Shown one piece after another: positions 6,131 through 27,443 of a stretch of 32,000 bases of DNA (positions within the stretch are counted from its first letter, which is position 1; the number at the start of each line of letters is the position of its first letter). The translations under genes were made by a program, and so were the position numbers. Under the pieces are notes generated by a model. That model was given only the letters and a program-made list of their open reading frames with translations, did not search any database and was not told where the DNA came from. Where the stretch lies: assembly GCF_000341895.1 (NCBI RefSeq), contig NC_020409.1:3302411-3334410 (forward strand). The letters are read 5' to 3'. Origin of the DNA: Pseudodesulfovibrio piezophilus C1TLV30 (GTDB lineage Bacteria; Desulfobacterota; Desulfovibrionia; Desulfovibrionales; Desulfovibrionaceae).

Positions 6131-7427
6131 TTTTCTTCGTCTTGTTTTCCGTTCGTTATTCACTCGTCTGGCGGCGGTCATGTTTTGTGCTGTCATTGGC
6201 ATAAATGTGATCACTTACTCTCTGTATGTTGGTTTGGAATTCGGCCATGAGACGACCATTAACAGAAGCCTCATGGAATATGCCCGGTCCATGGCCAATG
6301 CGATTGGCGTTCCCCCTGACATTGCGGTGGCGCGCCAGTTGGCTGAAGAGCGCATCATGCGCATTACTGTGGATGGTTCGACTTCCTTTGTGGTCGGTGA
6401 GACGCAGAGACGATTCCCGGATCGATTCCTGAAGCCGCGGTTTGCTGTTGACGGTATGGAAGTCTCCAGTCTCCATGGGTTTTATCGAGTCAAGGTGCCT
6501 GTTGCGCCGGATGTGAGCATAACCTTTGATTTGTTCCCGACGGCTGAGGAGAATGCCGCACTGCATACATACGGGATTATTTCCCTGGTCGGCACATGTC
6601 TGATCATGTTCGCGCTGTATCTTGCCGTGCGGTATCTTTTGCGCCCTGTGGGGTGGTTGACCAAGGGGGCGGCCGCTGTTCGGGATGGAGAATTGGGAAG
6701 CCGTGTGCCTGAGAAGAGCAGCGGGGAACTGAGAGAACTTTCCGAGACCTTTAACCAAATGGCAGCCCGTCTTGAATCCCTGATAGACGGCCATCAAAAA
6801 TTGCTTCTTGGGGTCAGTCATGAATTGCGGACTCCACTGACTCGGCTCAAACTTCGATTGGCTATGTTGGGTGAAGCCGTCAACATCGACCCCATCTGCA
6901 AGGACATTCGCCAAATGGAAACGATGATCGCCATTCTGCTTGATGCCGCCCGTATGCGGCATGACACCATGACGCTCAATCTTGAATCCGTAGACATGGC
7001 GGATTTGTTGAGCGATGCAGCGACTCTCTATGGAGACTCTCCTCCCGGTGTCAGGTTTGTCTCGCCCGGAATTCCGGTCGTCGCCACCGTTGATCGATTG
7101 CGGATGGAAGTGTTGATCAGTAACCTCATTGATAACGCCATCAAATATTCAGCTCGGGAGAGCGCACCAGTGGAGTTGCTCTTGTCACACACTGATGAGG
7201 GTGTAGAATTTTCAGTGTCTGATCAGGGGATAGGTATTCCGGATGACGCCTTGGAGCATCTTTTCGAACCTTTTTACAGGGTCGATGAATCTCGGACACC
7301 CCGGACCGGGGGCTATGGTCTTGGATTGTATATGTGCCAGGCCATAGCCGAGGCCCATGGCGTGGTCATCAAGGTCGAGAGTCGATTGGGAGTTGGTACG
7401 ACCATGCGAGTCGTCATTCCTGGCTAA
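6123..7427 (+). CDS. Sensor histidine kinase (2 TM, HAMP, HisKA, HATPase_c), CpxA/EnvZ-like
   Basis: H-box GVSHELRTPLT, N-box ISNLIDNAIKY, G-boxes SDQGIGI and GYGLGL. The ATG at 6123 overlaps the regulator gene's stop by 8 nt. Confidence 0.9.
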   Translation: MINFLRLVFRSLFTRLAAVMFCAVIGINVITYSLYVGLEFGHETTINRSLMEYARSMANAIGVPPDIAVARQLAEERIMRITVDGSTSFVVGETQRRFPDRFLKPRFAVDGMEVSSLHGFYRVKVPVAPDVSITFDLFPTAEENAALHTYGIISLVGTCLIMFALYLAVRYLLRPVGWLTKGAAAVRDGELGSRVPEKSSGELRELSETFNQMAARLESLIDGHQKLLLGVSHELRTPLTRLKLRLAMLGEAVNIDPICKDIRQMETMIAILLDAARMRHDTMTLNLESVDMADLLSDAATLYGDSPPGVRFVSPGIPVVATVDRLRMEVLISNLIDNAIKYSARESAPVELLLSHTDEGVEFSVSDQGIGIPDDALEHLFEPFYRVDESRTPRTGGYGLGLYMCQAIAEAHGVVIKVESRLGVGTTMRVVIPG

Positions 7428-7479: not shown

Positions 7480-8709
7480 TTAACCGGTCAAAGCGGTTTC
7501 TTTCATCTCATCCAGTCTTTCCAGATAGGCTTGTTGATAGAGTGGGCCGTTTGCAGTGAACTGCATTGCTGCTTTTTTATGCGCGTCACACCATTCCGCC
7601 AGTGCCGGATTGCGTTGAATGCGGCCATAGGCTTTGACCATGTGGAGTGTCATATGACAAACAGGCATCGTTTCCTTTGCCTGTACCAGCAATTTTGTCT
7701 GATCCTTTGCCAGATTCAGAAAAAAAGAAGCCACTGCTTCGGCACAATGATAATTGGCTCCTGATTTCAGTTTTTCCTGCACAGAAGGGATATCCAAAGA
7801 GGTGATGCGCCAGTGTCGCTGCCACTCGGCCGGGATGGTCTCTGACTGGCCGTATTCAATGGTCCCGGTCTTGAGAAAATGTTCCAGTTTAACAGCCATT
7901 CTCTCTGGCATTGGTCCGATGTGCTCAATATCGCGGCGGGCGTGAAGGGACGTGACAAGGCCGTCTTTTTCTTCCAGGCGAATCTTGAGGAAGGGACAGT
8001 GCTCCTCGATTTTTTTGGTGGAATCTGACCAGATGCCGCCGAAGACCGAGTCCATGTCAAGGATGTGCACGTCATCAAAAGCTTTTTCCCAGGCTGAAAG
8101 TATTGCCTTGCCTTTCATCCACAAGGTGCCCCAGCCATCCAGATAGGAAAAGGGGTCTGGTCCAAAGGCGGGGTAATGGGACAGTCGGGCGAGAATGACG
8201 ATGGGAACACCGGGGTTTTCCGCCCTGATGCGAACCAGCATTTCCCGGTATCTGTCCAGATATGTTGATGGGTTGGGTTTGAACATCCTGCAGTTGTTTT
8301 GTGCCCACGTCATCAGGTCCGGATTGTCAGTTAATCCTCTGGGGTCCATGAAGAAAACATATTTCTCTCGATCATGCAGAAAAAGAGGGGTGTTTTCATG
8401 GAAAAGACTCAGCACAATGAGTTCCGGAGCGGAGCTGTTCGCATCCAACGGGGAAAATTGGTGTGACAATATTCGGCCATGGAGATAAGGCTCAATCCCG
8501 AATTGTGATTCTATCTCTTCCAGGGACGGAGGTATACGTCCTGGATGGCTGGGATATGTCAATGGCGAAGCAAGAACCTTGTACACGGTTTCGTGCCCAC
8601 GCGCCGCCATGGCCCGGCTGAGAAAATCTGCTTGGCAGTTGCCGAGAAAGTAAATCACGTGATACTCCTCAAAAGTAAGTGTTCCAGACCCTCTTTTTAC
8701 GGGATACAT
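7480..8709 (-). CDS. Hypothetical protein (about 410 aa) with an N-terminal GNCQ motif (possibly WcbI-like)
   Basis: Long clean ORF. The track start at 8769 is TTG; the first ATG is at 8709 (MYPVKRGS...). YFLGNCQADFL resembles, from memory, the N-terminus of WcbI-type capsule-associated enzymes. The remainder is unrecognised. Confidence 0.55.
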   Translation of the reverse strand: MYPVKRGSGTLTFEEYHVIYFLGNCQADFLSRAMAARGHETVYKVLASPLTYPSHPGRIPPSLEEIESQFGIEPYLHGRILSHQFSPLDANSSAPELIVLSLFHENTPLFLHDREKYVFFMDPRGLTDNPDLMTWAQNNCRMFKPNPSTYLDRYREMLVRIRAENPGVPIVILARLSHYPAFGPDPFSYLDGWGTLWMKGKAILSAWEKAFDDVHILDMDSVFGGIWSDSTKKIEEHCPFLKIRLEEKDGLVTSLHARRDIEHIGPMPERMAVKLEHFLKTGTIEYGQSETIPAEWQRHWRITSLDIPSVQEKLKSGANYHCAEAVASFFLNLAKDQTKLLVQAKETMPVCHMTLHMVKAYGRIQRNPALAEWCDAHKKAAMQFTANGPLYQQAYLERLDEMKETALTG

Positions 8710-18230: not shown

Positions 18231-18761
18231 CTAAAGTGTTCCGAAGAATCGGTGGCGAATGCCTGCTAGCCCGAGAAGGCCCGAGCCAAGTAAGAAGAGA
18301 GCGCCTGGGAGTGGGGTGGCGCGGGTAAAGGTGCCGGAATAAAAGTGTGTTCCGATATCCCCCGAGCCATATTTATAGTGGATGCTTCCGGTCAGGAGAA
18401 AGCTGAGAGCATTGTCGAATGTCACGAGTCCACTGGTAAGCCAATCGGCCGTATCCTGCGCAAAGACAACAGAGTCGGCAAAACCTGTGTTGACCCCAAA
18501 GTAGCTGATCCAATCCGAGGAACTGGTCCACACCCCTCCCCATGATGCGGTGTCTGGAGCGACATAGACATATAAGTCGGTTCCAGAGAGAGAGTGATGC
18601 GAGATATCATCTCCTATCTCGATAGTCAGCTCCGTGGATGCGGCAGTCGAGAACAGGGTACCTGTATAGACCCCATACATCCCGGTGTTATCAACTGTGG
18701 CAAATGCCAGACTTGTGGAGAGCAGAATCGTAGAAAAACATACCAGCATTACTCTGAACAT
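18231..18761 (-). CDS. Secreted protein with a PEP-CTERM-like (VPLPA-type) C-terminal sorting signal
   Basis: ATG at 18761 preceded by AAAGGAGGTGAT. Signal peptide MFRVMLVCFSTILLSTSLAFA. The C-terminus TPLPGALFLLGSGLLGLAGIRHRF has a Pro motif, a Gly/Leu-rich helix and a basic patch. The track ORF extends upstream to 18938, but that stretch contains the promoter. Confidence 0.75.
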   Translation of the reverse strand: MFRVMLVCFSTILLSTSLAFATVDNTGMYGVYTGTLFSTAASTELTIEIGDDISHHSLSGTDLYVYVAPDTASWGGVWTSSSDWISYFGVNTGFADSVVFAQDTADWLTSGLVTFDNALSFLLTGSIHYKYGSGDIGTHFYSGTFTRATPLPGALFLLGSGLLGLAGIRHRFFGTL

Positions 18762-18791
18762 TGTAATCACCTCCTTTATTGTTTCACCTGA

Positions 18792-18807
18792 AGCAAAGCG
18801 CATACCA
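18792..18807 (-). promoter_or_regulatory. Sigma-54 (-24/-12) promoter of the 18231..18761 gene
   Basis: The minus strand reads TGGTATGCGCTTTGCT, with GG-N10-GC spacing and a -12 TTGCT. The 3' end of the element is 31 nt from the ATG. Confidence 0.65.
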
Positions 18808-19408
18808 TTCATTTTTCCTCTTATATAACAGATTCTTGAGGGTTCAGATCCATTGCTGGAAATTGTTTTCCGGTTTTCCTGGTCGAGCATTGAATTTTGG
18901 GTATCATCACTCACAAAAAGGGACAGTAATGAAAACACAGGCGGTTCTTATCACCTGGGATGGTCGGCGATGAATCATACGAGCCGTTTACACAGGTGGA
19001 TCTGACCTATGTGAGATCGCATACGAGCAGTCAAAAAGCGTTTGGAATGGTCGAGGGAGAGCCGAAGCCCTATGTCCGAAGCCTCTTCGCCATGTGTGGT
19101 GATGTGGTTCCGATAAATCCGGACATTTGGGATTGCTCTGATCGTGGTGGGCGAATTGTCCTGGTGTGAACGTCTGTCGATATTCATGGGAGGCTGGTTT
19201 CAAGAGTACCTCTTCTTGTAATCAATTGAGGGTAAGCGAAAATCTTGTCAAAATGTTTTGCAGTCTGGCCTTGCTCCTGCCACAAAGGTGGATGGTGTGT
19301 GGGGATAAAATTGACAAGTTGGAAATGCTCCGGCTAAGAGCGGGGCGCGGCTGGAGTATCAGCCCATCCATTACAATAGAAAGAATGAGCCTGTCGGCAT
19401 ACCCGAGA

Positions 19409-22054
19409 ATGAAGTATCCTGAAATTATGAAGACCCTGTGCTGCCTCATCCTGACCATGAGCATGGTCTGCTTTGCGTGTGTTGCGTCTGCGGCCACAGG
19501 ACGCAAGCAGGTACTGTATATCAATTCCTATCAAAACGGGTATGCTTGGTCGGACAACATCCTGGCAGGGATTCGTGAGAGGCTGAGGGAGAGTGACTAC
19601 ACCATTGACCTTCAGGTGGAGTACATGGATGCCAAGAAACATCCGGCACGGTCCAACCGAGCCTTGTTGAAACGGCTTTTTGCCAATAAGTTCGCCGAAT
19701 CCAGATTTGATGCAATCATCTGTTCGGACAACGATGCCTTTCAGTTCATGCTCTCCTATCATGATGTTCTGTTTCCTGGCGTGCCGGTGGTTTTTTGCGG
19801 GGTGAATGACTGGCAGCCGGAAGTGTTGGAACGGCAGCAGGGCGTGACCGGTATTGTTGAACGATTGGGTATTCGTGAAACTCTGGAAACAGCATTGCGT
19901 CTTAACCCGTTGAAGCGGAAAGTCATCGTTGTTGGCGATCCCTCGCTGACATCGCGGGCAATTGCAGCCCAGATAAAGGCTGTTGTGCCGGATTTTATCG
20001 ACCGGCTGGAGTTTTCTTTCTGGGAGAATATCCCTCTCAATGAACTGCTTTCGCGCAGCCGAAATCTTCCCGACGACACGCTTCTCTTTTTCATCCCTGT
20101 CTATGTGGAATCCGAGGGCAAGTACCTTTCGGCAGGAGAGGTTGTTGAAGCCCTGTATGAGAATGCCAATGTCCCTATCTATGGCGCATGGAAGTTCCTT
20201 CTGGGGCACGGCATCGTCGGTGGGCATCTGCTGGACGGTGTGGGGCATGGCAAGGCTGCTGCAAATATGGTTCTGAAAATTCTGGACGGTCTGTCTCCTG
20301 CGGATATTCCCACCGCTTACGGTGCACCATCGGGGTCAGTGTTTGATTGGAAGGTCCTGGAGAAATTCGGCATGGACATAGCGGTACTTCCATTTGATGC
20401 GCAGTTCATTAATCGGCCGGAATTGACGTACCAGCTTGAAAAAAGGGTTGTCTGGACTGTGGGGGTTGCTCTGTGTGTCTTGACACTGTTTACGCTTTTG
20501 TTGGGAGCGAGTCGTAATCGAGCGCTCCGGGCCGAACGTGAATTGGCTTTGTCCAGGGCAATGTTGCGCTCAATCATTGATACCATCCCGCAACTGCTCT
20601 ACTGGAAGGATTCCGATAATCGATTCAAGGGCGTCAATAGGCGTTTTGCGGATTTTTTTGGGCTTTCCCGGTTGGAGGAAGCTGAAGGAAAACGGAATAA
20701 CGATGTCATTCATGAAAAACAGTTTTCAAGAAAGAGTGATGATCTGGATCGAATTGTCATGGATCGGGGACTGCCTGTCCTGCGGGAGATTCTGGAATAT
20801 GATGCTCCCGATCGTCCCGGAATGGTCTTTGAAATGAGCAAGATTCCCTTGCATGATGACAAGGGAAATATTTCAGGTGTCTTATCCACTGCGGAGGACA
20901 TCACGGCTCGTGTGGTTCTGGAACAGCAGCTTATTCAGTCTCAAAAGATGGAGGCTGTCGGGACTTTTGTTGGAGGTATTGCACATGATTTTAATAATTT
21001 GCTGACAACAATTATCAATTCGACTGAACTTGCATTGATGGAAATAGAAGCTGTTGATGCGGCAGAGGATGTGCTGCGCGCCAAGTTGGCCGCACAGCAG
21101 GGGAGTCAGCTTGTGAGCCAGCTTCTGACATTCTCAAGGCCATCGAACAGGGATGCCATGCGTATGGATGCGGCGGAAACTGTCACGAAAGCACTGAATC
21201 TTGTCGCTCCATTGCTGCCGGACTCTATTGTTTTGAAAAGAGATATTCCTCCCGACATATTGGAAGGTGTTGCTGATCCTTCTCAATTGCAGCAGGTCGT
21301 GATGAACCTCTGCACCAATGCTATCCACGCGTTGAAGGAGTCCGGTGGAGTCCTGATTGTTTCTGTGTCAGTGGATGAGGGCCGTCAGCGAAACGCGCAA
21401 TCCGGACTTGCGGGCAGACGGCTCCTTCGGCTCAAGGTCCGGGACAATGGACCAGGTATTTCTCCTAATGTCCGGGACAGAATTTTCGATCCGTTTTTTA
21501 CTACCAAGAAAAAGCATGAGGGAACCGGTTTAGGATTGGCTATTGTTCAGGGGATTGTGCACGGACATGGTGGGCACATTCGGCTTGTCAGTCATCCAGG
21601 GCTGACGCTTTTTGATATTGCAATTCCTTTCGAGAAGGGGGAATCAGCTCCGGTTATTTCGAATACGACGAACTTTGGAGGCGAAGAGAGAATTCTCTTT
21701 GTGGAAGATGATCCGGAGCAATTGGTATTGATTCCGCGTGCCCTGTCACTCCTCGGGTATAAGGTGACAGCGGTCCAGGGCGGGCGTGCCGCATTGGATG
21801 TTCTCATGGGAGGGACCCGATTCGACATGATTGTCACGGATTTTGATATGCCGGGGTTCGACGGTGTGGAGTTGGCCAGAACCGTGCGGCAACTTTTTCC
21901 TGGTATTCCCGTGATTCTTGTTTCAGGCGGGCAGGATGCAGTGGCTGCGGCTGATGGAGATCCAGGGATCATCGATGTTTTGATGAAACCGTACACCGGA
22001 AGTGCTTTGGCAGAGCGCATGAGACGTCTCTTTGATGTCGACAGCAATGCTTGA
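19409..22054 (+). CDS. Hybrid sensor histidine kinase (periplasmic ABC-substrate-binding-like domain, TM, PAS, HisKA, HATPase_c, REC)
   Basis: Signal/[39 protein letters not shown] is a periplasmic-binding-like motif. [41 protein letters not shown]-box [11 protein letters not shown]. Also [16 protein letters not shown] and [22 protein letters not shown]...[11 protein letters not shown]...MKP. Start is 19409 or 19427; the track start at 19166 is GTG and probably read-through. Confidence 0.85.
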
Positions 22055-22079
22055 GTTGATTGTGAAGGAACAGAGAGAC

Positions 22080-23492
22080 ATGGCAACAGTACTGATACTT
22101 GATGATGATCTGCGTTTGAACCAAACCATGGTCCGCATCATGGGCCGGATGGGACTTGAAGCCGATTCCGCTGCGACCATTGCGGAGGCTCGGGAGCTTA
22201 TGCAAGGCAGGGCGTATAAACTCGTCTTTTTGGATGTCCGGCTCCCTGATGGTAATGGGTTGGATATTTTACCGGAAATTCTGGACACGCCATCCCGGCC
22301 AGAGGTTGTCATTCTGACAGGAAAGGGAGACCCGGATGGTGCGGAACTGGCTATCCACGCCGGAGCCTGGGACTACCTTCTTAAACCGTCTTCCGTGAAG
22401 CAAACCATGCTTTGTGCCGAGAGGGCGCTCAAATATCACAAGCAGAAACTTGTTGTCGAACCTGCGTCCAAAATCGACCTTGGCAGCCTGGTGGGTGTCA
22501 GTCCCAAGATGGAAGCCTGCTATGAGCAGATAGCACTTGCTGCGCGGTCGGATTCCAATGTTTTGATTACTGGAGAAACCGGGACTGGCAAGGAACTCTT
22601 CGCACAAACGATTCACAAGAACTGTTCCCGAAGAGAATTCGAGTTTGTTCCGGTGGACTGTGCGTCTCTCAACAAAGAATTGATTGAGAGTGTGCTTTTC
22701 GGTCATAAGCGCGGCGCATTCACCGGAGCGGAGCGGGACCGAGTCGGACTGGTCAAGGTTGCCGATCGGGGCACCTTGTTTCTGGATGAAGTCGGGGACA
22801 TGAATCTTGATATTCAGAAGACCTTTCTCAGAGTCCTTCAGGAGCGAGCATTTCGCCCTGTCGGGGATACAAAGGAAGTTTCGAGTAATTTCCGCTTGAT
22901 GGCTGCCACAAATCGAGATCTTGATGCTGATATTGATCAGGAAATGTTTCGCCAGGATCTTCTGTACCGTCTCAAGACCATTCATATCAAGTTGCCTCCT
23001 TTGCGAGAGCGTGACGGAGATATCAAGTTGCTGGCCTTGTTTCGGGTCAACCAGCTTGCTCGGCAGTATGATCGGGAAATGACCCTGGCCCCGGAATCTT
23101 TCGATGTCCTGAGCGCCTATGCCTGGCCCGGCAATGTGCGTGAATTATTTGCAGTCATTGAAACCGCATTTCTTCATGCAGATGGTGCGGCGCAGATTAT
23201 TCCCCGCCATTTACCCTCTCAATTGCGTGTTGCCGCCATGAGGGCACAGGTTGCTCGTGTTGACGGCTCTTCTGTCGTTTCAGAACGAGAGAGCGGTCCG
23301 GATTCTCTTGGTATGGAAGCTGTCAAGCAGGGAGTCTCGTTGAAAGGGTTCAAGGGAGACATGGAAAAACATTATCTTGAAGAACTCAGGACTGTTACAG
23401 GAGGTGATATTAAGCGTATGATCGAAATCTCCGGATGTTCACAATCACATCTCTATTCCTTGCTGAAAAAAGCTGGCCTTTCTCTCAAATAA
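22080..23492 (+). CDS. Sigma-54-dependent response regulator (REC + AAA+ enhancer-binding domain + Fis-type HTH), NtrC family
   Basis: REC VLILDDD...FLDVRLPDGNG...LKP. Walker A GETGTGKE, GAFTGA loop and Walker B LFLDEVGDM. C-terminal HTH ISGCSQSHLYSLLKKAGL. ATG at 22080. Confidence 0.9.
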   Translation: MATVLILDDDLRLNQTMVRIMGRMGLEADSAATIAEARELMQGRAYKLVFLDVRLPDGNGLDILPEILDTPSRPEVVILTGKGDPDGAELAIHAGAWDYLLKPSSVKQTMLCAERALKYHKQKLVVEPASKIDLGSLVGVSPKMEACYEQIALAARSDSNVLITGETGTGKELFAQTIHKNCSRREFEFVPVDCASLNKELIESVLFGHKRGAFTGAERDRVGLVKVADRGTLFLDEVGDMNLDIQKTFLRVLQERAFRPVGDTKEVSSNFRLMAATNRDLDADIDQEMFRQDLLYRLKTIHIKLPPLRERDGDIKLLALFRVNQLARQYDREMTLAPESFDVLSAYAWPGNVRELFAVIETAFLHADGAAQIIPRHLPSQLRVAAMRAQVARVDGSSVVSERESGPDSLGMEAVKQGVSLKGFKGDMEKHYLEELRTVTGGDIKRMIEISGCSQSHLYSLLKKAGLSLK

Positions 23493-23743
23493 GTTTCTGA
23501 TTGGAATTTCTAAAAAAAAGAAAATTTTTTTATTTTGTTATTGCAGTGTGTTATAGTAGTTCTGTAAGGGCTTTTTTGAAAGACGGATACTAAATATAAC
23601 TATATTTGTGGACTTTATCGTTTATATTCAGTGGGATATCGTTGTGCTACGCTTGATTCTTTTTTTTAGGAAAAAAAAGGCAGGTCTGAAATAGCAGACG
23701 AATTGTTTAATTAATAAACCGCTGTAATAATAAAGAATAATCT

Positions 23744-23759
23744 TGGCACAACTCTTGTT
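23744..23759 (+). promoter_or_regulatory. Sigma-54-like promoter in front of a non-coding region
   Basis: TGGCACAACTCTTGTT has a perfect -24 TGGCAC and correct spacing, but the -12 is TTGT rather than TTGC. A sigma-70-like alternative, TTGTTT-N17-(TGt)AATAAT at 23703-23731, lies just upstream. Confidence 0.45.
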
Positions 23760-23769
23760 ATGATGAGGT

Positions 23770-23948
23770 TGACCTCAGTCACACCAGGGGTTGTGAAGTC
23801 CGCAAGCTTCATAACCGCAAGGTACCGGGTGGCGCTCTGCGCATCACCTCCTTGTCGTGGAGCGCCACCTTGCTTATGGCATAATAACGCCACAAAAAAA
23901 GACCTCAACTCCTGTATATGCAGGAGTTGAGGTCTTTTTTTGTGGCGT
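23770..23948 (+). ncRNA. Candidate ~175-nt small RNA with an anti-Shine-Dalgarno loop
   Basis: Bounded by the promoter motifs above and a perfect intrinsic terminator. A 10-bp stem, GGTGGCGCTC / GAGCGCCACC (23828-23837 / 23860-23869), has a 22-nt loop containing ATCACCTCCTT (23843-23853). There is no RBS-preceded ORF and no downstream + strand gene. The 5' end is not determined. Confidence 0.4.
23887..23948. terminator. Bidirectional intrinsic terminator (28-bp perfect palindrome with internal A7 and T7 runs)
   Basis: ACGCCACAAAAAAAGACCTCAACTCCTG-tatatg-CAGGAGTTGAGGTCTTTTTTTGTGGCGT. It serves the convergent 24009..24632 gene and the + strand candidate sRNA. Confidence 0.85.
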
Positions 23949-24008
23949 TTGGGCGCTCATTCTCAAGAGCGTTTCTTTACCATGACTCTCTCACATACCA
24001 TCTCTATC

Positions 24009-24632
24009 TCAGGATAAACGGCGTTTGATGCCGATTAGCCCAAGGAGTCCTGTGCCGAGGAGGAGAGCCGCACCCGGGATCGGAGTGGGCGAAACAGAAA
24101 CATTGCTGAAAATACTGGTGCTGATACCATCACCGCCAGCCGAGCTGACATGGTCATCATCATTGATGAAGACAAGGTAATCAAATGCATCGCCTATATT
24201 GAGAAAGTCCGTCAGGTTAATGGTATACGTCGTGAAACCGCTGCCTTCCGTATACAAGGTGGAATAGATGAATTCAGGCCAGTTATTGCCCTGTGTGCCG
24301 CCTATCTTGACAGCGTTTTTGGCATCGAGTGCATAATCGAATGACCTATCGGTATCAAAGCCAATGGCTGCTATTTCAGGGATGGAATCGCTTTTGTAGG
24401 TAAATGTCAGGACGCTGTCAGCTTTGACTGTATAAGTGGAATCAAAAGCATAGGCAGTCCAAATATTATTGGACAAGGTCAGTGTTGATCCACTGGCAGA
24501 TGCTGTGCCTGTGGTTGGTTGGCCGGAATATGACAGCGGATTGCTGAAGTCGATAAGGGCAGCGGTCGCAAAGCCGGGTGAGCCTAAGTGGCAGAGTACG
24601 GTACAGAAAAAAAGTATTAGAAAACGTTTCAT
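24009..24632 (-). CDS. Secreted protein with a PEP-CTERM-like (VPLPA-type) C-terminal sorting signal
   Basis: Signal peptide MKRFLILFFCTVLCHLGSPGFA. C-terminus TPIPGAALLLGTGLLGLIGIKRRLS. GGAG RBS. Apart from the two termini, there is no obvious similarity to the 18231..18761 protein. Confidence 0.8.
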   Translation of the reverse strand: MKRFLILFFCTVLCHLGSPGFATAALIDFSNPLSYSGQPTTGTASASGSTLTLSNNIWTAYAFDSTYTVKADSVLTFTYKSDSIPEIAAIGFDTDRSFDYALDAKNAVKIGGTQGNNWPEFIYSTLYTEGSGFTTYTINLTDFLNIGDAFDYLVFINDDDHVSSAGGDGISTSIFSNVSVSPTPIPGAALLLGTGLLGLIGIKRRLS

Positions 24633-24662: not shown

Positions 24663-24678
24663 AGCAAGACCTGGACCA
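24663..24678 (-). promoter_or_regulatory. Sigma-54 (-24/-12) promoter of the 24009..24632 gene
   Basis: The minus strand reads TGGTCCAGGTCTTGCT, with GG-N10-GC spacing and a -12 TTGCT. Its 3' end is 31 nt from the ATG, the same geometry as at 18792-18807. Confidence 0.6.
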
Positions 24679-25049: not shown

Positions 25050-25083
25050 ATGTGCCCCTGGTCCGTGAGGACCAGGGGCACAT
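25050..25083. other. 15-bp perfect hairpin with a GTGA (GNRA-type) tetraloop in a non-coding region
   Basis: ATGTGCCCCTGGTCC-gtga-GGACCAGGGGCACAT. No flanking T-run, so it is not a classic terminator. Confidence 0.6.
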
Positions 25084-25212
25084 CTCCGGGGGGTCAGTAC
25101 CCTTTCGGGATACAGGAGTTTGAGGGGGGGTGAAACCCTCAAGGGACGTATCTGTTCTGGTCCGTAGCACGTCAGACCAAAACAAGAGTTGTTCAGTGAC
25201 GAATAGTCACAT

Positions 25213-25328: not shown

Positions 25329-27443
25329 TTACTTCTTGCTGATTTCTTCGAATGGTTGCACATCGGTATCCTGAGCGTATTCGGCTCCTGCCTCGGAGTC
25401 GTAGCAGGTCAGGCCGCAGCGGAGGCAACGGCTTCCTTCCTTTCTTGCTTCTTCGTAGGCAATGCCGCCCTGAACTTCTTCCTTGAAGGTGCACTTGCGT
25501 TCTTCCACGCTGATCTCGGGGACCTGAATGCGGGGGATGGAATACGTCACATGCATATTCTTGAGGATGGATTCGGGAATAACTCGAAGTTGCGGATTCT
25601 TTGGCTCAGGAATGGTTCCCTCGGTTATGGAGTGGTGGATGGCACGAGCCGCACGGCGACCATCGGCAACAGCCTGGATCAGGATGTTGCGTCCTGTATG
25701 GGCTTCGCCACCAGTGAACACATTGGGGATGCTGGTTTGCAGCGTCGTGGCATCAGCCTTGATTCCACCGGTTTTTTTATCCATCTCAAAGAGAGGGGAA
25801 CCTTCTGCATTCATCAATGAACCGGCACCGGACATGCGATCCGTCGCGACGATGATCATGTCGGCTTCAAGGTTTGCCTCGGTTCCATCGACGACTTTGG
25901 GGGTACCGGTGGCTTTTTTGGGATCGGCATACGCCAATTCGCAATAATCTATACCTGTAACCTTTCCATTTTCAGCCGTGATGGCTGTTGGAGTCGTGAG
26001 GTATTTGAGGTCTGCACCGAGTTCGGCAGCACGTTTGACTTCATTCTTGTTCGCAGCCATTTTCCGGTCATTGCAGGCAATGAGGGAAGAGACGTCAGCT
26101 CCGAGGCGAATGGCGCTCCGCACGACATCCATGGCCGTGTTGCTATCTCCGACCACAACGACTTTCTTTCCTTTGAGGTCGGTATATGTTTCACCAACCT
26201 GTTCCAGGAAAGAGATCGAATCGACCACACCGTCAGCGGTATCGTTTTCGATTCCCAGAGCCGGGACTTTCCAGGCTCCTGTCGCCATGAAAACGGCTTC
26301 GAATCCTTCCTCTTCCAAATCGGGAAGGGTGAAATCCGTGCCGAATGTCATGCCGGTACGAATGTCTACACCAAGGTCGAGAATAGTCTGGATTTCCCAG
26401 TCAACCACTTTGTGCGGGAGTCTGTATTCGGGAATGACGCCGCGCATCATGCCACCGACCAGGTCACGCTTTTCGAATATGACCGGTTCGTGCCCGATTC
26501 GTCGCAGGAAGTATGCGCAAGACAGACCAGCAGCACCACCACCTATGATCGCCACTCGGTGACCTGAAGGGGGATTGCAGTTGAGTTGGACTCGTGCGCC
26601 GGAGTTCATTTCCCAGTCAGCGACAAAACGGTGCAGGGTATGAATAGCCACGCCGTTGTCGGCTATCTTGCGGCGGCAAATGTTTTCACAAGGGGCAGGG
26701 CAGAGGCGGCCGACAGCCAGAGGCAGGGGATTGCGTTCCTTCATGGTCAGAAGTGCGCCGCGCATGTCGCCCTGTTTCATTTGTTGAATATAGGTACGAA
26801 CATCCACCTGGGCCGGGCATTTCTGCATGCAGGGGGCCAGGCAGTCATCAATCTTGTTCAGGTGTAGCAGATCCATGGTCATGCCTGAAATGCGGATGGC
26901 TCCGGTCGGGCAGACTTCCGCGCATTTTCCACAGGATCGGCAGGCGTGCCAGTCCACGACAGGGAGTCCGTTGTCATCAAGTCGGATAGCATCAAAACTG
27001 CACACCTTGACGCAGGTTCCCATGCCGATGCAGCCGAGACCACATGATTTCTCGCCACCATAGAGTAGAGCTTCAGCGCGGCAGTCCTCGACTCCTTCGT
27101 AGTCAAAGAGCAGATTGGCGCGGGATCCGCCAGTACAAATGTTTGCCGCGACTTTGGGTTCCTTGAAAGTAACTTCGGTTCCCATGATTGCCGCAATAGC
27201 GGTTGCGATCTCCGGGCCTCCGGCCACGCATATTTCAGGGGCTGCATCGCCTTTGACGATAGCTCCGGCAGCGGCAGAGCAGCCGGGATAGCCGCAGCCT
27301 CCGCAGTTGGCACCGGGAAAGCATCCCTCAACCGCTGCGATGCGGGGATCTTCTTCAACATGAAGGACTCGGGACGCGGCAGCCAGAACTGCGGCAGCGC
27401 CAAGACCTAGTAAAAACAGGACCAGTATGGAAGTGGTAGCCAT
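25329..27443 (-). CDS. rnfB: RnfB fused to a GltD-like (glutamate synthase small-subunit type) FAD/NAD(P)H oxidoreductase, 704 aa
   Basis: N-terminal TM, then the RnfB Fe-S domain GANCGGCGYPGC...C, then two ferredoxin motifs (CGLGCIGMGTCVKVC and CRSCGKCAEVCP). Next comes the GltD N-terminal Fe-S region CLAPCMQKCP...NPLPLAVGRLCPAPCENICRR, the dinucleotide folds VAIIGGGAAGLSCAYFL and KKVVVVGDSNTAMD, and a C-terminal CLRCGLTC. Confidence 0.85.
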   Translation of the reverse strand: MATTSILVLFLLGLGAAAVLAAASRVLHVEEDPRIAAVEGCFPGANCGGCGYPGCSAAAGAIVKGDAAPEICVAGGPEIATAIAAIMGTEVTFKEPKVAANICTGGSRANLLFDYEGVEDCRAEALLYGGEKSCGLGCIGMGTCVKVCSFDAIRLDDNGLPVVDWHACRSCGKCAEVCPTGAIRISGMTMDLLHLNKIDDCLAPCMQKCPAQVDVRTYIQQMKQGDMRGALLTMKERNPLPLAVGRLCPAPCENICRRKIADNGVAIHTLHRFVADWEMNSGARVQLNCNPPSGHRVAIIGGGAAGLSCAYFLRRIGHEPVIFEKRDLVGGMMRGVIPEYRLPHKVVDWEIQTILDLGVDIRTGMTFGTDFTLPDLEEEGFEAVFMATGAWKVPALGIENDTADGVVDSISFLEQVGETYTDLKGKKVVVVGDSNTAMDVVRSAIRLGADVSSLIACNDRKMAANKNEVKRAAELGADLKYLTTPTAITAENGKVTGIDYCELAYADPKKATGTPKVVDGTEANLEADMIIVATDRMSGAGSLMNAEGSPLFEMDKKTGGIKADATTLQTSIPNVFTGGEAHTGRNILIQAVADGRRAARAIHHSITEGTIPEPKNPQLRVIPESILKNMHVTYSIPRIQVPEISVEERKCTFKEEVQGGIAYEEARKEGSRCLRCGLTCYDSEAGAEYAQDTDVQPFEEISKK

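Follow-up and report, generated by a model that had tools for sequence, protein, structure and literature searches.

What is encoded directly 3' of a sigma-54 enhancer-binding protein (EBP) gene in Pseudodesulfovibrio piezophilus C1TLV30, where a promoter-like motif and an intrinsic terminator enclose DNA with no credible open reading frame (ORF)? The window analyzed here is a 32-kb stretch of that genome, and all coordinates are window positions. An initial annotation had proposed a sigma-54-dependent small RNA (sRNA) whose hairpin loop mimics the anti-Shine–Dalgarno (anti-SD) tail of 16S rRNA and matches the Shine–Dalgarno (SD) sequence of a neighboring sorting-signal gene. Our answer is that the conserved, structured, sigma-54-linked RNA element is very probably genuine. 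It represents a previously undescribed RNA family, absent from Rfam, of a known kind: regulatory RNAs that adjoin an EBP gene, are driven by sigma-54, and carry an anti-SD-like seed. Most relatives have this RNA as part of the 5' leader of a lactate permease gene.

Is there a promoter?

The features that bear on transcription are as follows.

19166..22054, plus strand: hybrid sensor histidine kinase (HK), partner of the EBP, with the Pfam domains periplasmic ABC_sub_bind, PAS, HisKA, HATPase, and REC
22032..23492, plus strand: sigma-54 enhancer-binding response regulator (the EBP) with a GAFTGA motif, likely start ATG 22047 (NCBIfam and translation)
23684..23699, no strand: perfect 16-bp palindrome GTCTGAAATAGCAGAC, a candidate LurR-type enhancer (upstream activating sequence, UAS), 60 nt upstream of TGGCAC
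23744..23758, plus strand: sigma-54 -24/-12 element TGGCAC-AACTC-TTGT (TGGCACAACTCTTGT), with GG at 23745-46 and GT at 23757-58

The EBP is 100% identical to P. piezophilus protein CCH50286.1, and it matches NtrC/AtoC/PEP_resp_reg-like families in NCBIfam, every one below its curated cut-off. Orthologous HK-EBP loci (65-77% EBP identity), in which the HK domain architecture is identical, were collected by protein search and contig look-ups from strain zrk46 (L003), P. tunisiensis (L004), and the metagenome lineages L006/7/31, L008/9, L010, L011-13, L053, and L054; L040 was found by a DNA-pattern scan and L055-58 were reached via the permease. Scanning genome contigs with the EBP gave just one 48% relative and one unrelated match.

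The -24/-12-like motif that the initial annotation had placed just past the EBP gene is the sole match in the window to TGGCAC-N5-TTGY with zero mismatches. The GG at -24 and the 10-nt spacing of the dinucleotides fit the sigma-54 consensus (TGGCAC-N5-TTGC), with GT instead at -12. Published sigma-54 promoters of Desulfovibrio vulgaris also carry TTGT at -12, namely DVU3025 ATTGGCACATTTCTTGTTA, DVU3302 CTTGGCACGGGGCTTGTTA, and DVU0943 (supplement of PMC4641369); the window promoter reads CTTGGCACAACTCTTGTTA for comparison with the first two. Because TTGGCAC-N5-TTG is invariant 3' of the EBP gene across all orthologous loci, and TTGT promoters are on record, positions 23744-58 make a well-supported predicted sigma-54 promoter.

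The palindrome is likewise the sole window match to GTCYG-N6-CRGAC with zero mismatches. It lies at exactly 60 nt 5' of TGGCAC in the window, and six further distinct lineages (L004, L006, L008, L011, L040, and L053) share this spacing. The truncated L054 has it at the same position, as does the divergent L059 with one mismatch; the version in L010 is weaker. The LurR-type motif TGTCYG-N6-CRGACA is matched by the window (GGTCTGAAATAGCAGACG), L006 (TGTCTGAAAACACAGACA), and L004 (CGTCCGGGATTCCGGACA), and can be set beside the published sites of LurR (DVU3023), whose motif was validated experimentally: GTCCGCTTTTTCAGAC, TGTCTGCAATGTCGGACA, and TGTCTGAAAAACCAGACT (PMC6456213; supplement of PMC4641369). 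A cognate EBP is also at hand, as the GAFTGA-containing gene lies directly upstream of palindrome and promoter.

A separate observation concerns 25178-25192 (minus strand), ~550 nt upstream of the PEP-CTERM gene that starts at 24632, where ACAACTCTTGTTTTG repeats 13 nt of the RNA promoter core (ACAACTCTTGTT) without the -24 GG. Either the promoter was copied here and degenerated, or the match arose by chance.

What does the RNA look like?

One can read the following elements downstream of the promoter.

23770..23946, plus strand: predicted transcript of ~177 nt, with its start inferred 12 nt past the -12 element and its end at the terminator U-tract
23771..23777, plus strand: 5'-terminal GACCUCA, a second exposed CCUC motif (GACCTCA occupies the same place in seven of eight family members)
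23783..23823, plus strand: hairpin P1/P1a with core GAAGU-CCGCAA-GCUUC (minimum free energy [MFE] fold; compensatory changes in relatives)
23827..23870, plus strand: hairpin P2 with the anti-SD-like loop (AUCACCUCCUU at 23843-53; MFE fold and covariation)
23886..23949, no strand: intrinsic terminator with 32-nt arms 23886-23917 / 23918-23949, 97% complementary, a GC-rich core stem followed by T7

The 10-bp GC-rich stem and 22-nt loop of the initial annotation are found as described: the arms GGTGGCGCTC (23828-37) and GAGCGCCACC (23860-69) flank 22 nt that include the 11-mer ATCACCTCCTT at 23843-53. In the MFE fold the stem is longer, spanning 23827-23870, and the unpaired loop shrinks to 9 nt, UCACCUCCU. 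Folding of the 181-nt stretch yields -105.4 kcal/mol (z = -12.7 against shuffles), to which the terminator contributes most. The latter has A7 on its opposite side and hence is bidirectional; it is predicted to end the RNA and also to serve the convergent gene at 24009-24632. The reading of this terminator as a repeated mobile palindrome was ruled out, as a repeat search found no further copy in the window.

The 11-mer is identical over 11 nt to the universal 16S rRNA tail. It has two exact matches in the window, at 23843-53 and at 18766-76 (plus strand). With up to one mismatch there are four matches against 0.72 expected, a number that 1 of 100 shuffles reaches. A further stretch, GCGCATCACCTCTTTGG at 7791-7807 (minus strand), matches the loop region in the same sense over 16 of 17 nt; it lies inside a coding sequence (peptide ...HWRITSLD..., no Pfam match), and the match is probably a coincidence.

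Two ORFs overlap the RNA, one of 56 amino acids (plus strand, 23760-23930) and one of 65 (minus strand, 23711-23908). Neither finds a match in Pfam, and the RNA of relatives differs by indels that are not multiples of three. The small-protein reading was rejected on these grounds, i.e., no Pfam match and no conservation of the ORFs, and also because the plus-strand ATG (23760) precedes the predicted start at ~23770. The initial annotation was thus right to see ~175 nt without a credible ORF. We also rejected a minus-strand reading, in which an SD and ATG lie opposite the loop: the spacing is too short, L008 and L040 have no ATG there, and the G-U pairs fit the plus strand only.

Is the structure conserved?

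The RNA family comprises eight distinct sequences (the window, L003, L006, L008, L010, L011, L040, and L053), which have a 5' domain in common. Its parts are a 5'-terminal GACCUCA, then P1a (GAAGYCCGCAAACUUC), around which most members form a P1 helix (rearranged in the window), and P2. The P2 loop reads (U)CACCUCCUUG, shortened to GCUCCUUG in zrk46, so that CCUCCU is kept in seven of eight members and zrk46 has CUCCUU. Compensatory changes among members alter P1a (GGAG/CUCC, AAAG/CUUU).

The structure was evaluated on an alignment of nine sequences, that is, the eight members plus the divergent L004. Standard pairs fill 91.8% of the pair cells and 10 of 19 pairs are changed on both sides; none of 500 column shuffles reaches the observed pairing and covariation, and slid controls are 41-49% paired. 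P2 alone accounts for 14 pairs, of which seven are changed on both sides; its cells are paired in 92% of cases. About eight cells across the structure hold G-U pairs, which would turn into A-C mismatches if the minus strand were folded instead; the RNA should hence be placed on the plus strand. The stem-loop is therefore maintained, with covariation support for its hairpins, in the syntenic regions of relatives.

A covariance model of the eight members (R1) gives them 80-105 bits, with the next best sequence at 18 bits or less, and detects the RNA just once in the window. A metagenome pattern scan returned 37 loci, of which just two (L031 and L040) are true members; the others pass neither the hairpin check nor the covariance model. 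In agreement with the initial annotation, which could place the RNA in no family, the whole window has no match in Rfam at the gathering score. At E <= 10, the strong matches (E < 0.01) are only to miRNA-precursor models on the terminator palindrome, far below gathering scores, and the full L040 leader at E <= 5 gives nothing except a chance snoRNA match.

Where does the RNA come from?

In six of the eight members, the RNA is the first half of a ~195-nt structured 5' leader of a lactate permease gene (PF02652), in the order HK-EBP-RNA-lactate permease (L006, L008, L010, L011, L040/L055, and L053). The full leader runs from P1/P1a and P2 through a long P3 and an unstructured A-rich stretch to the SD GGAGAC, followed by the permease. 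It has four helices, with covariation in P1, P2, and P3 and with 16 of 50 pairs changed on both sides. A PF02652 permease also lies directly downstream in L004 and L059. The leaders of these two loci (L004 7727-8146 and L059 1180-1442) are unrelated or strongly diverged.

Only P. piezophilus and zrk46 among the eight lack the permease, and in both the RNA ends at a terminator. No ortholog from either was present among the best 120 permease homologs (down to 58% identity). In the window, the leader is cut 3' of P2 by the palindromic terminator and the transcript holds no permease; zrk46 has a different, ordinary terminator ~260 nt past the promoter. Alignments 3' of the window terminator score no better than shuffles, and a remnant of P3, the 3' leader, or the permease at that place was rejected for this reason.

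With the permease absent and a terminator present, the leader would be a stand-alone RNA only in the window and zrk46. The marks expected of sRNAs in general (own promoter, Rho-independent terminator, no coding potential, and a conserved exposed seed) come together only in these two; in the other members, the RNA runs on into the permease mRNA. The stand-alone sRNA of the initial annotation accordingly could hold for the two permease-less genomes and fails for most relatives, in which the RNA leads into a permease gene.

Compensatory changes have kept the P2 stem intact in both of these genomes (GGCGCUC/GAGCGCC versus GGCGUCCCGG/CCGGGACGCC). The flanking genes are wholly different between the two, and yet HK, EBP, promoter, P2 stem, and loop are retained in both, which favors a retained function over a decaying relic without proving it.

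What might the RNA do?

The explanation that we favor, with about even confidence, is a ~177-nt noncoding RNA (ncRNA) that would be driven by sigma-54 and a LurR-like EBP, derive from the permease leader, stand alone, and pair with the SDs of its targets. The two-component system would probably sense lactate or a related acid, judging from the gene that it regulates in relatives. The adjacent LurR-like, lactate-type EBP would bind the palindrome 60 nt upstream and activate the promoter, and the product is homologous to the 5' domain of the ~195-nt permease leader, with its CACCUCCUU loop on P2. In P. piezophilus, the permease is missing and the intrinsic terminator closes the leader, which would give a stand-alone sRNA; termination in zrk46 is independent. 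The exposed CCUCC loop, perhaps together with the 5' GACCUCA, would most probably pair with SD regions of mRNAs and lower their translation. Transcription, EBP dependence, and SD occlusion are what we infer from the anatomy, conservation, covariation, and genomic contexts observed above; that the RNA acts in P. piezophilus as a trans-acting, SD-occluding sRNA is a tentative proposal, to which we give somewhat less than an even chance.

Several points weigh against this explanation and should be kept in mind. The -12 dinucleotide of the window promoter is GT, where GC is canonical. The palindrome is eroded in zrk46, with five mismatches, which could mean decay. In the linked leaders, pairing of the loop with the permease's own SD amounts to -6.6 to -11.1 kcal/mol, which lies within the background of random coding windows in four of six; pairing this weak does not account for an ancestral role of the loop. 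The family is narrow, with eight distinct sequences known. In the tunisiensis-like lineage (L004 and L059), the UAS, the 60-nt spacing, the promoter, and the permease are all retained, but the leader is a different one that lacks the CCUCC loop, which means that the genus has seen a replacement of the leader RNA. Finally, a duplex scan within the window singles out no target, and an anti-SD seed alone carries little specificity.

An extension of the favored explanation, that in every member, permease-linked ones too, the 5' domain is released or acts in trans with a loop copying the 16S anti-SD tail, seems improbable to us. If it were true, lactate sensing would tie uptake either to repression, at the SD, of a set of strongly translated mRNAs or to the titration of a factor recognizing the 16S 3' end, and P. 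piezophilus and zrk46 would have kept only the regulatory arm after transporter loss.

Whatever the RNA's action, an undescribed structured RNA family is added to the sigma-54 regulome of sulfate reducers. The locus would also be a clear natural case of an mRNA leader turned into a stand-alone small RNA while still attached to its two-component system, and through it one could test what deep-sea Pseudodesulfovibrio regulate, other than transport, with their LurR-like lactate-sensing systems.

Which alternatives should be considered?

The alternative that survives best, though we consider it unlikely, is that of a non-functional relic: the promoter and the first half of the leader were left behind when the permease was lost, and the terminator belongs to the convergent PEP-CTERM gene. 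One might expect as much of an RNA that is a permease leader in six of eight lineages, in a genome without a permease ortholog among the best 120 homologs. The terminator is symmetric and lies 60 nt past the stop of the convergent gene (24009-24632); zrk46 has an eroded UAS, and P1 is rearranged in the window. A relic fits poorly, however, with both permease-less genomes having HK and EBP genes that are intact and whose only adjacent target is the RNA promoter. In the window, UAS and promoter are perfect; compensatory substitutions between window and zrk46 maintain P2 and its CCUCC loop; each of the two has its own, unrelated terminator at a similar distance; and no trace of the 3' leader or permease was found.

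Somewhat less likely still is a cis-acting element of the permease mRNA, serving stability, translation, or the binding of a protein or metabolite, of which the stand-alone copy would at most titrate the same factor. The full leader, with its ~195 nt, four helices, and covariation in P1, P2, and P3, is invariably located between the sigma-54 promoter and the start of the permease, and this idea agrees with the titration of an RNA-binding protein that the initial annotation had offered as an alternative. Against it, the permease SD is unpaired in the consensus fold of the leader, and cis pairing of the loop with this SD was rejected as weak and not above background. The leaders show no terminator/antiterminator alternative, the distribution is very narrow for a riboswitch, and no candidate binding protein is encoded nearby. 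For the 5' domain in its permease-linked form, two explanations are possible: a processed 5' fragment that acts in trans in all members, or a protein-binding module.

The initial annotation had linked the RNA to the neighboring sorting-signal gene in an incoherent feed-forward loop, in which the EBP activates both the PEP-CTERM gene and the RNA, and the RNA specifically occludes the SD of that gene. The features concerned are these.

18231-18761, minus strand: PEP-CTERM-like gene upstream of HK-EBP, with a PEP-CTERM-like C-terminal tail
18766..18776, minus strand: SD AAGGAGGUGAU of that gene, a generic perfect SD and not a demonstrated part of the system
24009-24632, minus strand: PEP-CTERM-like gene convergent with the RNA, with a PEP-CTERM-like C-terminal tail

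The observation behind this idea is exact, as the SD AAGGAGGTGAT sits 4 nt before the ATG of gene 18231-18761 and is the exact complement of the 11-mer. Loop and SD pair with -18.5 kcal/mol, over exactly the 11 nt that the loop has in common with the 16S tail. The same SD pairs better with the generic 16S tail (-20.6 kcal/mol, 13 bp predicted, one G-U wobble). Because the 16S pairing is the stronger and complementarity ends where 16S identity ends, the match is what one expects of any perfect SD and adds no independent information. Indeed, this SD is not among the 14 best-scoring sites for the whole loop in the window duplex scan, and the second PEP-CTERM gene pairs poorly with the loop, at just -7.0 kcal/mol. 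We recommend caution in target prediction of this kind, since complementarity between an anti-SD-like seed and a perfect SD says almost nothing about targets.

As to co-activation, both PEP-CTERM genes do possess their own -24/-12 elements at the right distance, ~30-45 nt upstream (TGGTATgcgctTTGCT at 18792-18807 and TGGTCCaggtcTTGCT at 24663-24678, both on the minus strand), and these are the only two matches to TGG-N8-TTGCW in the 32-kb window. Yet no palindrome or motif in common with the RNA promoter was found upstream of either gene, and a UAS common to the three promoters was rejected. PEP-CTERM genes are also absent from every related locus, including all that carry the RNA. Both the specific link to the sorting-signal gene and its activation by the same EBP thus lack support, and we regard the feed-forward loop as very improbable.

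We give hardly any credence to the last alternative, a mimic of the 16S rRNA 3' end that serves as a decoy for a factor recognizing that end rather than for mRNAs: the 11-nt identity to the universal tail and, in the window only, a collinear similarity to the 16S 3' minor domain upstream of the tail (23778-23842, plus strand: GUCACACC, GAAGUC, and UAACCG.A.GG.ACC; local alignment to 16S without the tail 22.5 versus a mean of 14.9, reached by 23 of 2000 shuffles and 14 of 2000 genomic segments, p about 0.01) speak for it, but the extended similarity is not family-wide (L003, L004, L006, and L010 do no better than shuffles), Rfam yields no small subunit (SSU) rRNA match even at E = 10, and the tail sits in a closed hairpin loop rather than at a free 3' end. 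The extended resemblance is probably coincidental. A 16S rRNA fragment or pseudogene was rejected as well, there being no SSU match and only marginal similarity beyond the tail, in the window alone.

What else lies at the locus?

The stretch from the EBP stop codon to the palindrome holds two further boxes, which form an inverted repeat with each other and have counterparts in all relatives.

23507..23522, no strand: A/T-rich box 1 (TTTCTAAAAAAAAGAA), aligned to the conserved TTTTTCTGAAAA box of relatives directly 3' of the EBP stop codon
23657..23672, no strand: A/T-rich box 2 (TTCTTTTTTTTAGGAA), aligned to the conserved TTTTTCAGAAAA box of relatives

These may be extra protein-binding sites, for example, EBP half-sites or sites for IHF or another regulator. 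Elsewhere, a perfect 15-bp hairpin (ATGTGCCCCTGGTCC / GGACCAGGGGCACAT) occupies 25050-25083, where a long intergenic region separates gene 25329-27443 from the PEP-CTERM gene.

Comparison with known systems

The closest parallel for the control region is the regulon of LurR (DVU3023) in D. vulgaris, which comprises the sigma-54 promoters of the lactate utilization operon and of the lactate permease DVU2451 (PMC6456213, PMC3333781, PMC4641369). The two have in common that a two-component sigma-54 EBP adjoins its target, that the binding site is a 16-18-bp palindrome of the form TGTCYG-N6-CRGACA, and that TTGT stands at -12, as in the DVU3025 promoter. In relatives, the likeness extends to the target, a lactate permease whose promoter lies ~210-230 nt before the start codon (DVU2451: -211); a target in lactate transport or oxidation is found in the six relatives with the RNA leader and in L004 and L059. 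The window differs in that its promoter would drive a terminated ncRNA and no permease, which leaves it without the regulated gene typical of the regulon, and structured leaders or anti-SD loops have not been reported among LurR targets. The DNA-binding segment of the window EBP is closest to DVU3220 (23 of 42 residues identical) rather than to DVU3023, and the protein as a whole shares only ~55% identity with the ortholog at the LurR position in Pseudodesulfovibrio sp. F-1 (L014). At 7137-7342 of the latter locus, the 55%-identical HK-EBP pair lies upstream of por and lactate permease (the classical LurSR position); GTCCGTTTTTTCGGAC and TGGCATggatgTTG are present there, and the leader is short, without a window-type RNA.

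In layout, the RNA resembles two sigma-54-dependent ncRNAs that lie immediately 3' of the EBP genes DVU0653 and DVU0679 (the latter is Dv_sRNA2) in D. vulgaris (PMC3333781, PMC4641369): an EBP gene is followed by a palindromic UAS, a -24/-12 promoter, and a short ncRNA. The DVU0653 site TGTCCGCnATCGCGGACA and promoter CTTGGCACGCTTCTTGGTA resemble those of the window RNA family, although no leader origin is reported for either ncRNA. The layout also recalls Qrr1-luxO, CrcZ-cbrB, and GlmY-glrR, in which sigma-54-dependent sRNA genes adjoin an EBP gene and carry the output of a two-component system. Those RNAs work by Hfq-dependent pairing outside the SD, or by titration of Hfq/Crc or RapZ; their mechanisms differ from the one proposed here, and the window RNA has no similarity to them in sequence or structure (no Rfam match).

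For the proposed mechanism, one should look to the cuckoo/alpha-r14 sRNAs of the Alphaproteobacteria (NfeR1, RSs0680/CcsR), which silence mRNAs with an anti-SD loop that occludes the ribosome binding site (PMC4615179, PMC10746234). They, too, present an anti-SD-like C/U-rich motif in a hairpin loop whose stem varies by compensatory changes. Their CCUCCUCCC, however, recurs in two to four adjacent hairpin loops, whereas the window RNA has a single CACCUCCUU loop and a single-stranded 5' GACCUCA. Further differences lie in phylum, promoter type, and origin; the window RNA is not a member of that family, and the resemblance is one of mechanism only.

Finally, cis-leaders that also exist or act as terminated small RNAs are represented by SreA/SreB of Listeria and the SAM-I riboswitch/sRNA of D. 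vulgaris (bioRxiv 10.1101/803072). In the window family, by contrast, no ligand is known, and the cis and stand-alone forms occur in different species. Its unusual feature, as read from these genomes, is precisely this: one RNA appears as a lactate permease leader in most species and as a terminated, stand-alone RNA in two.

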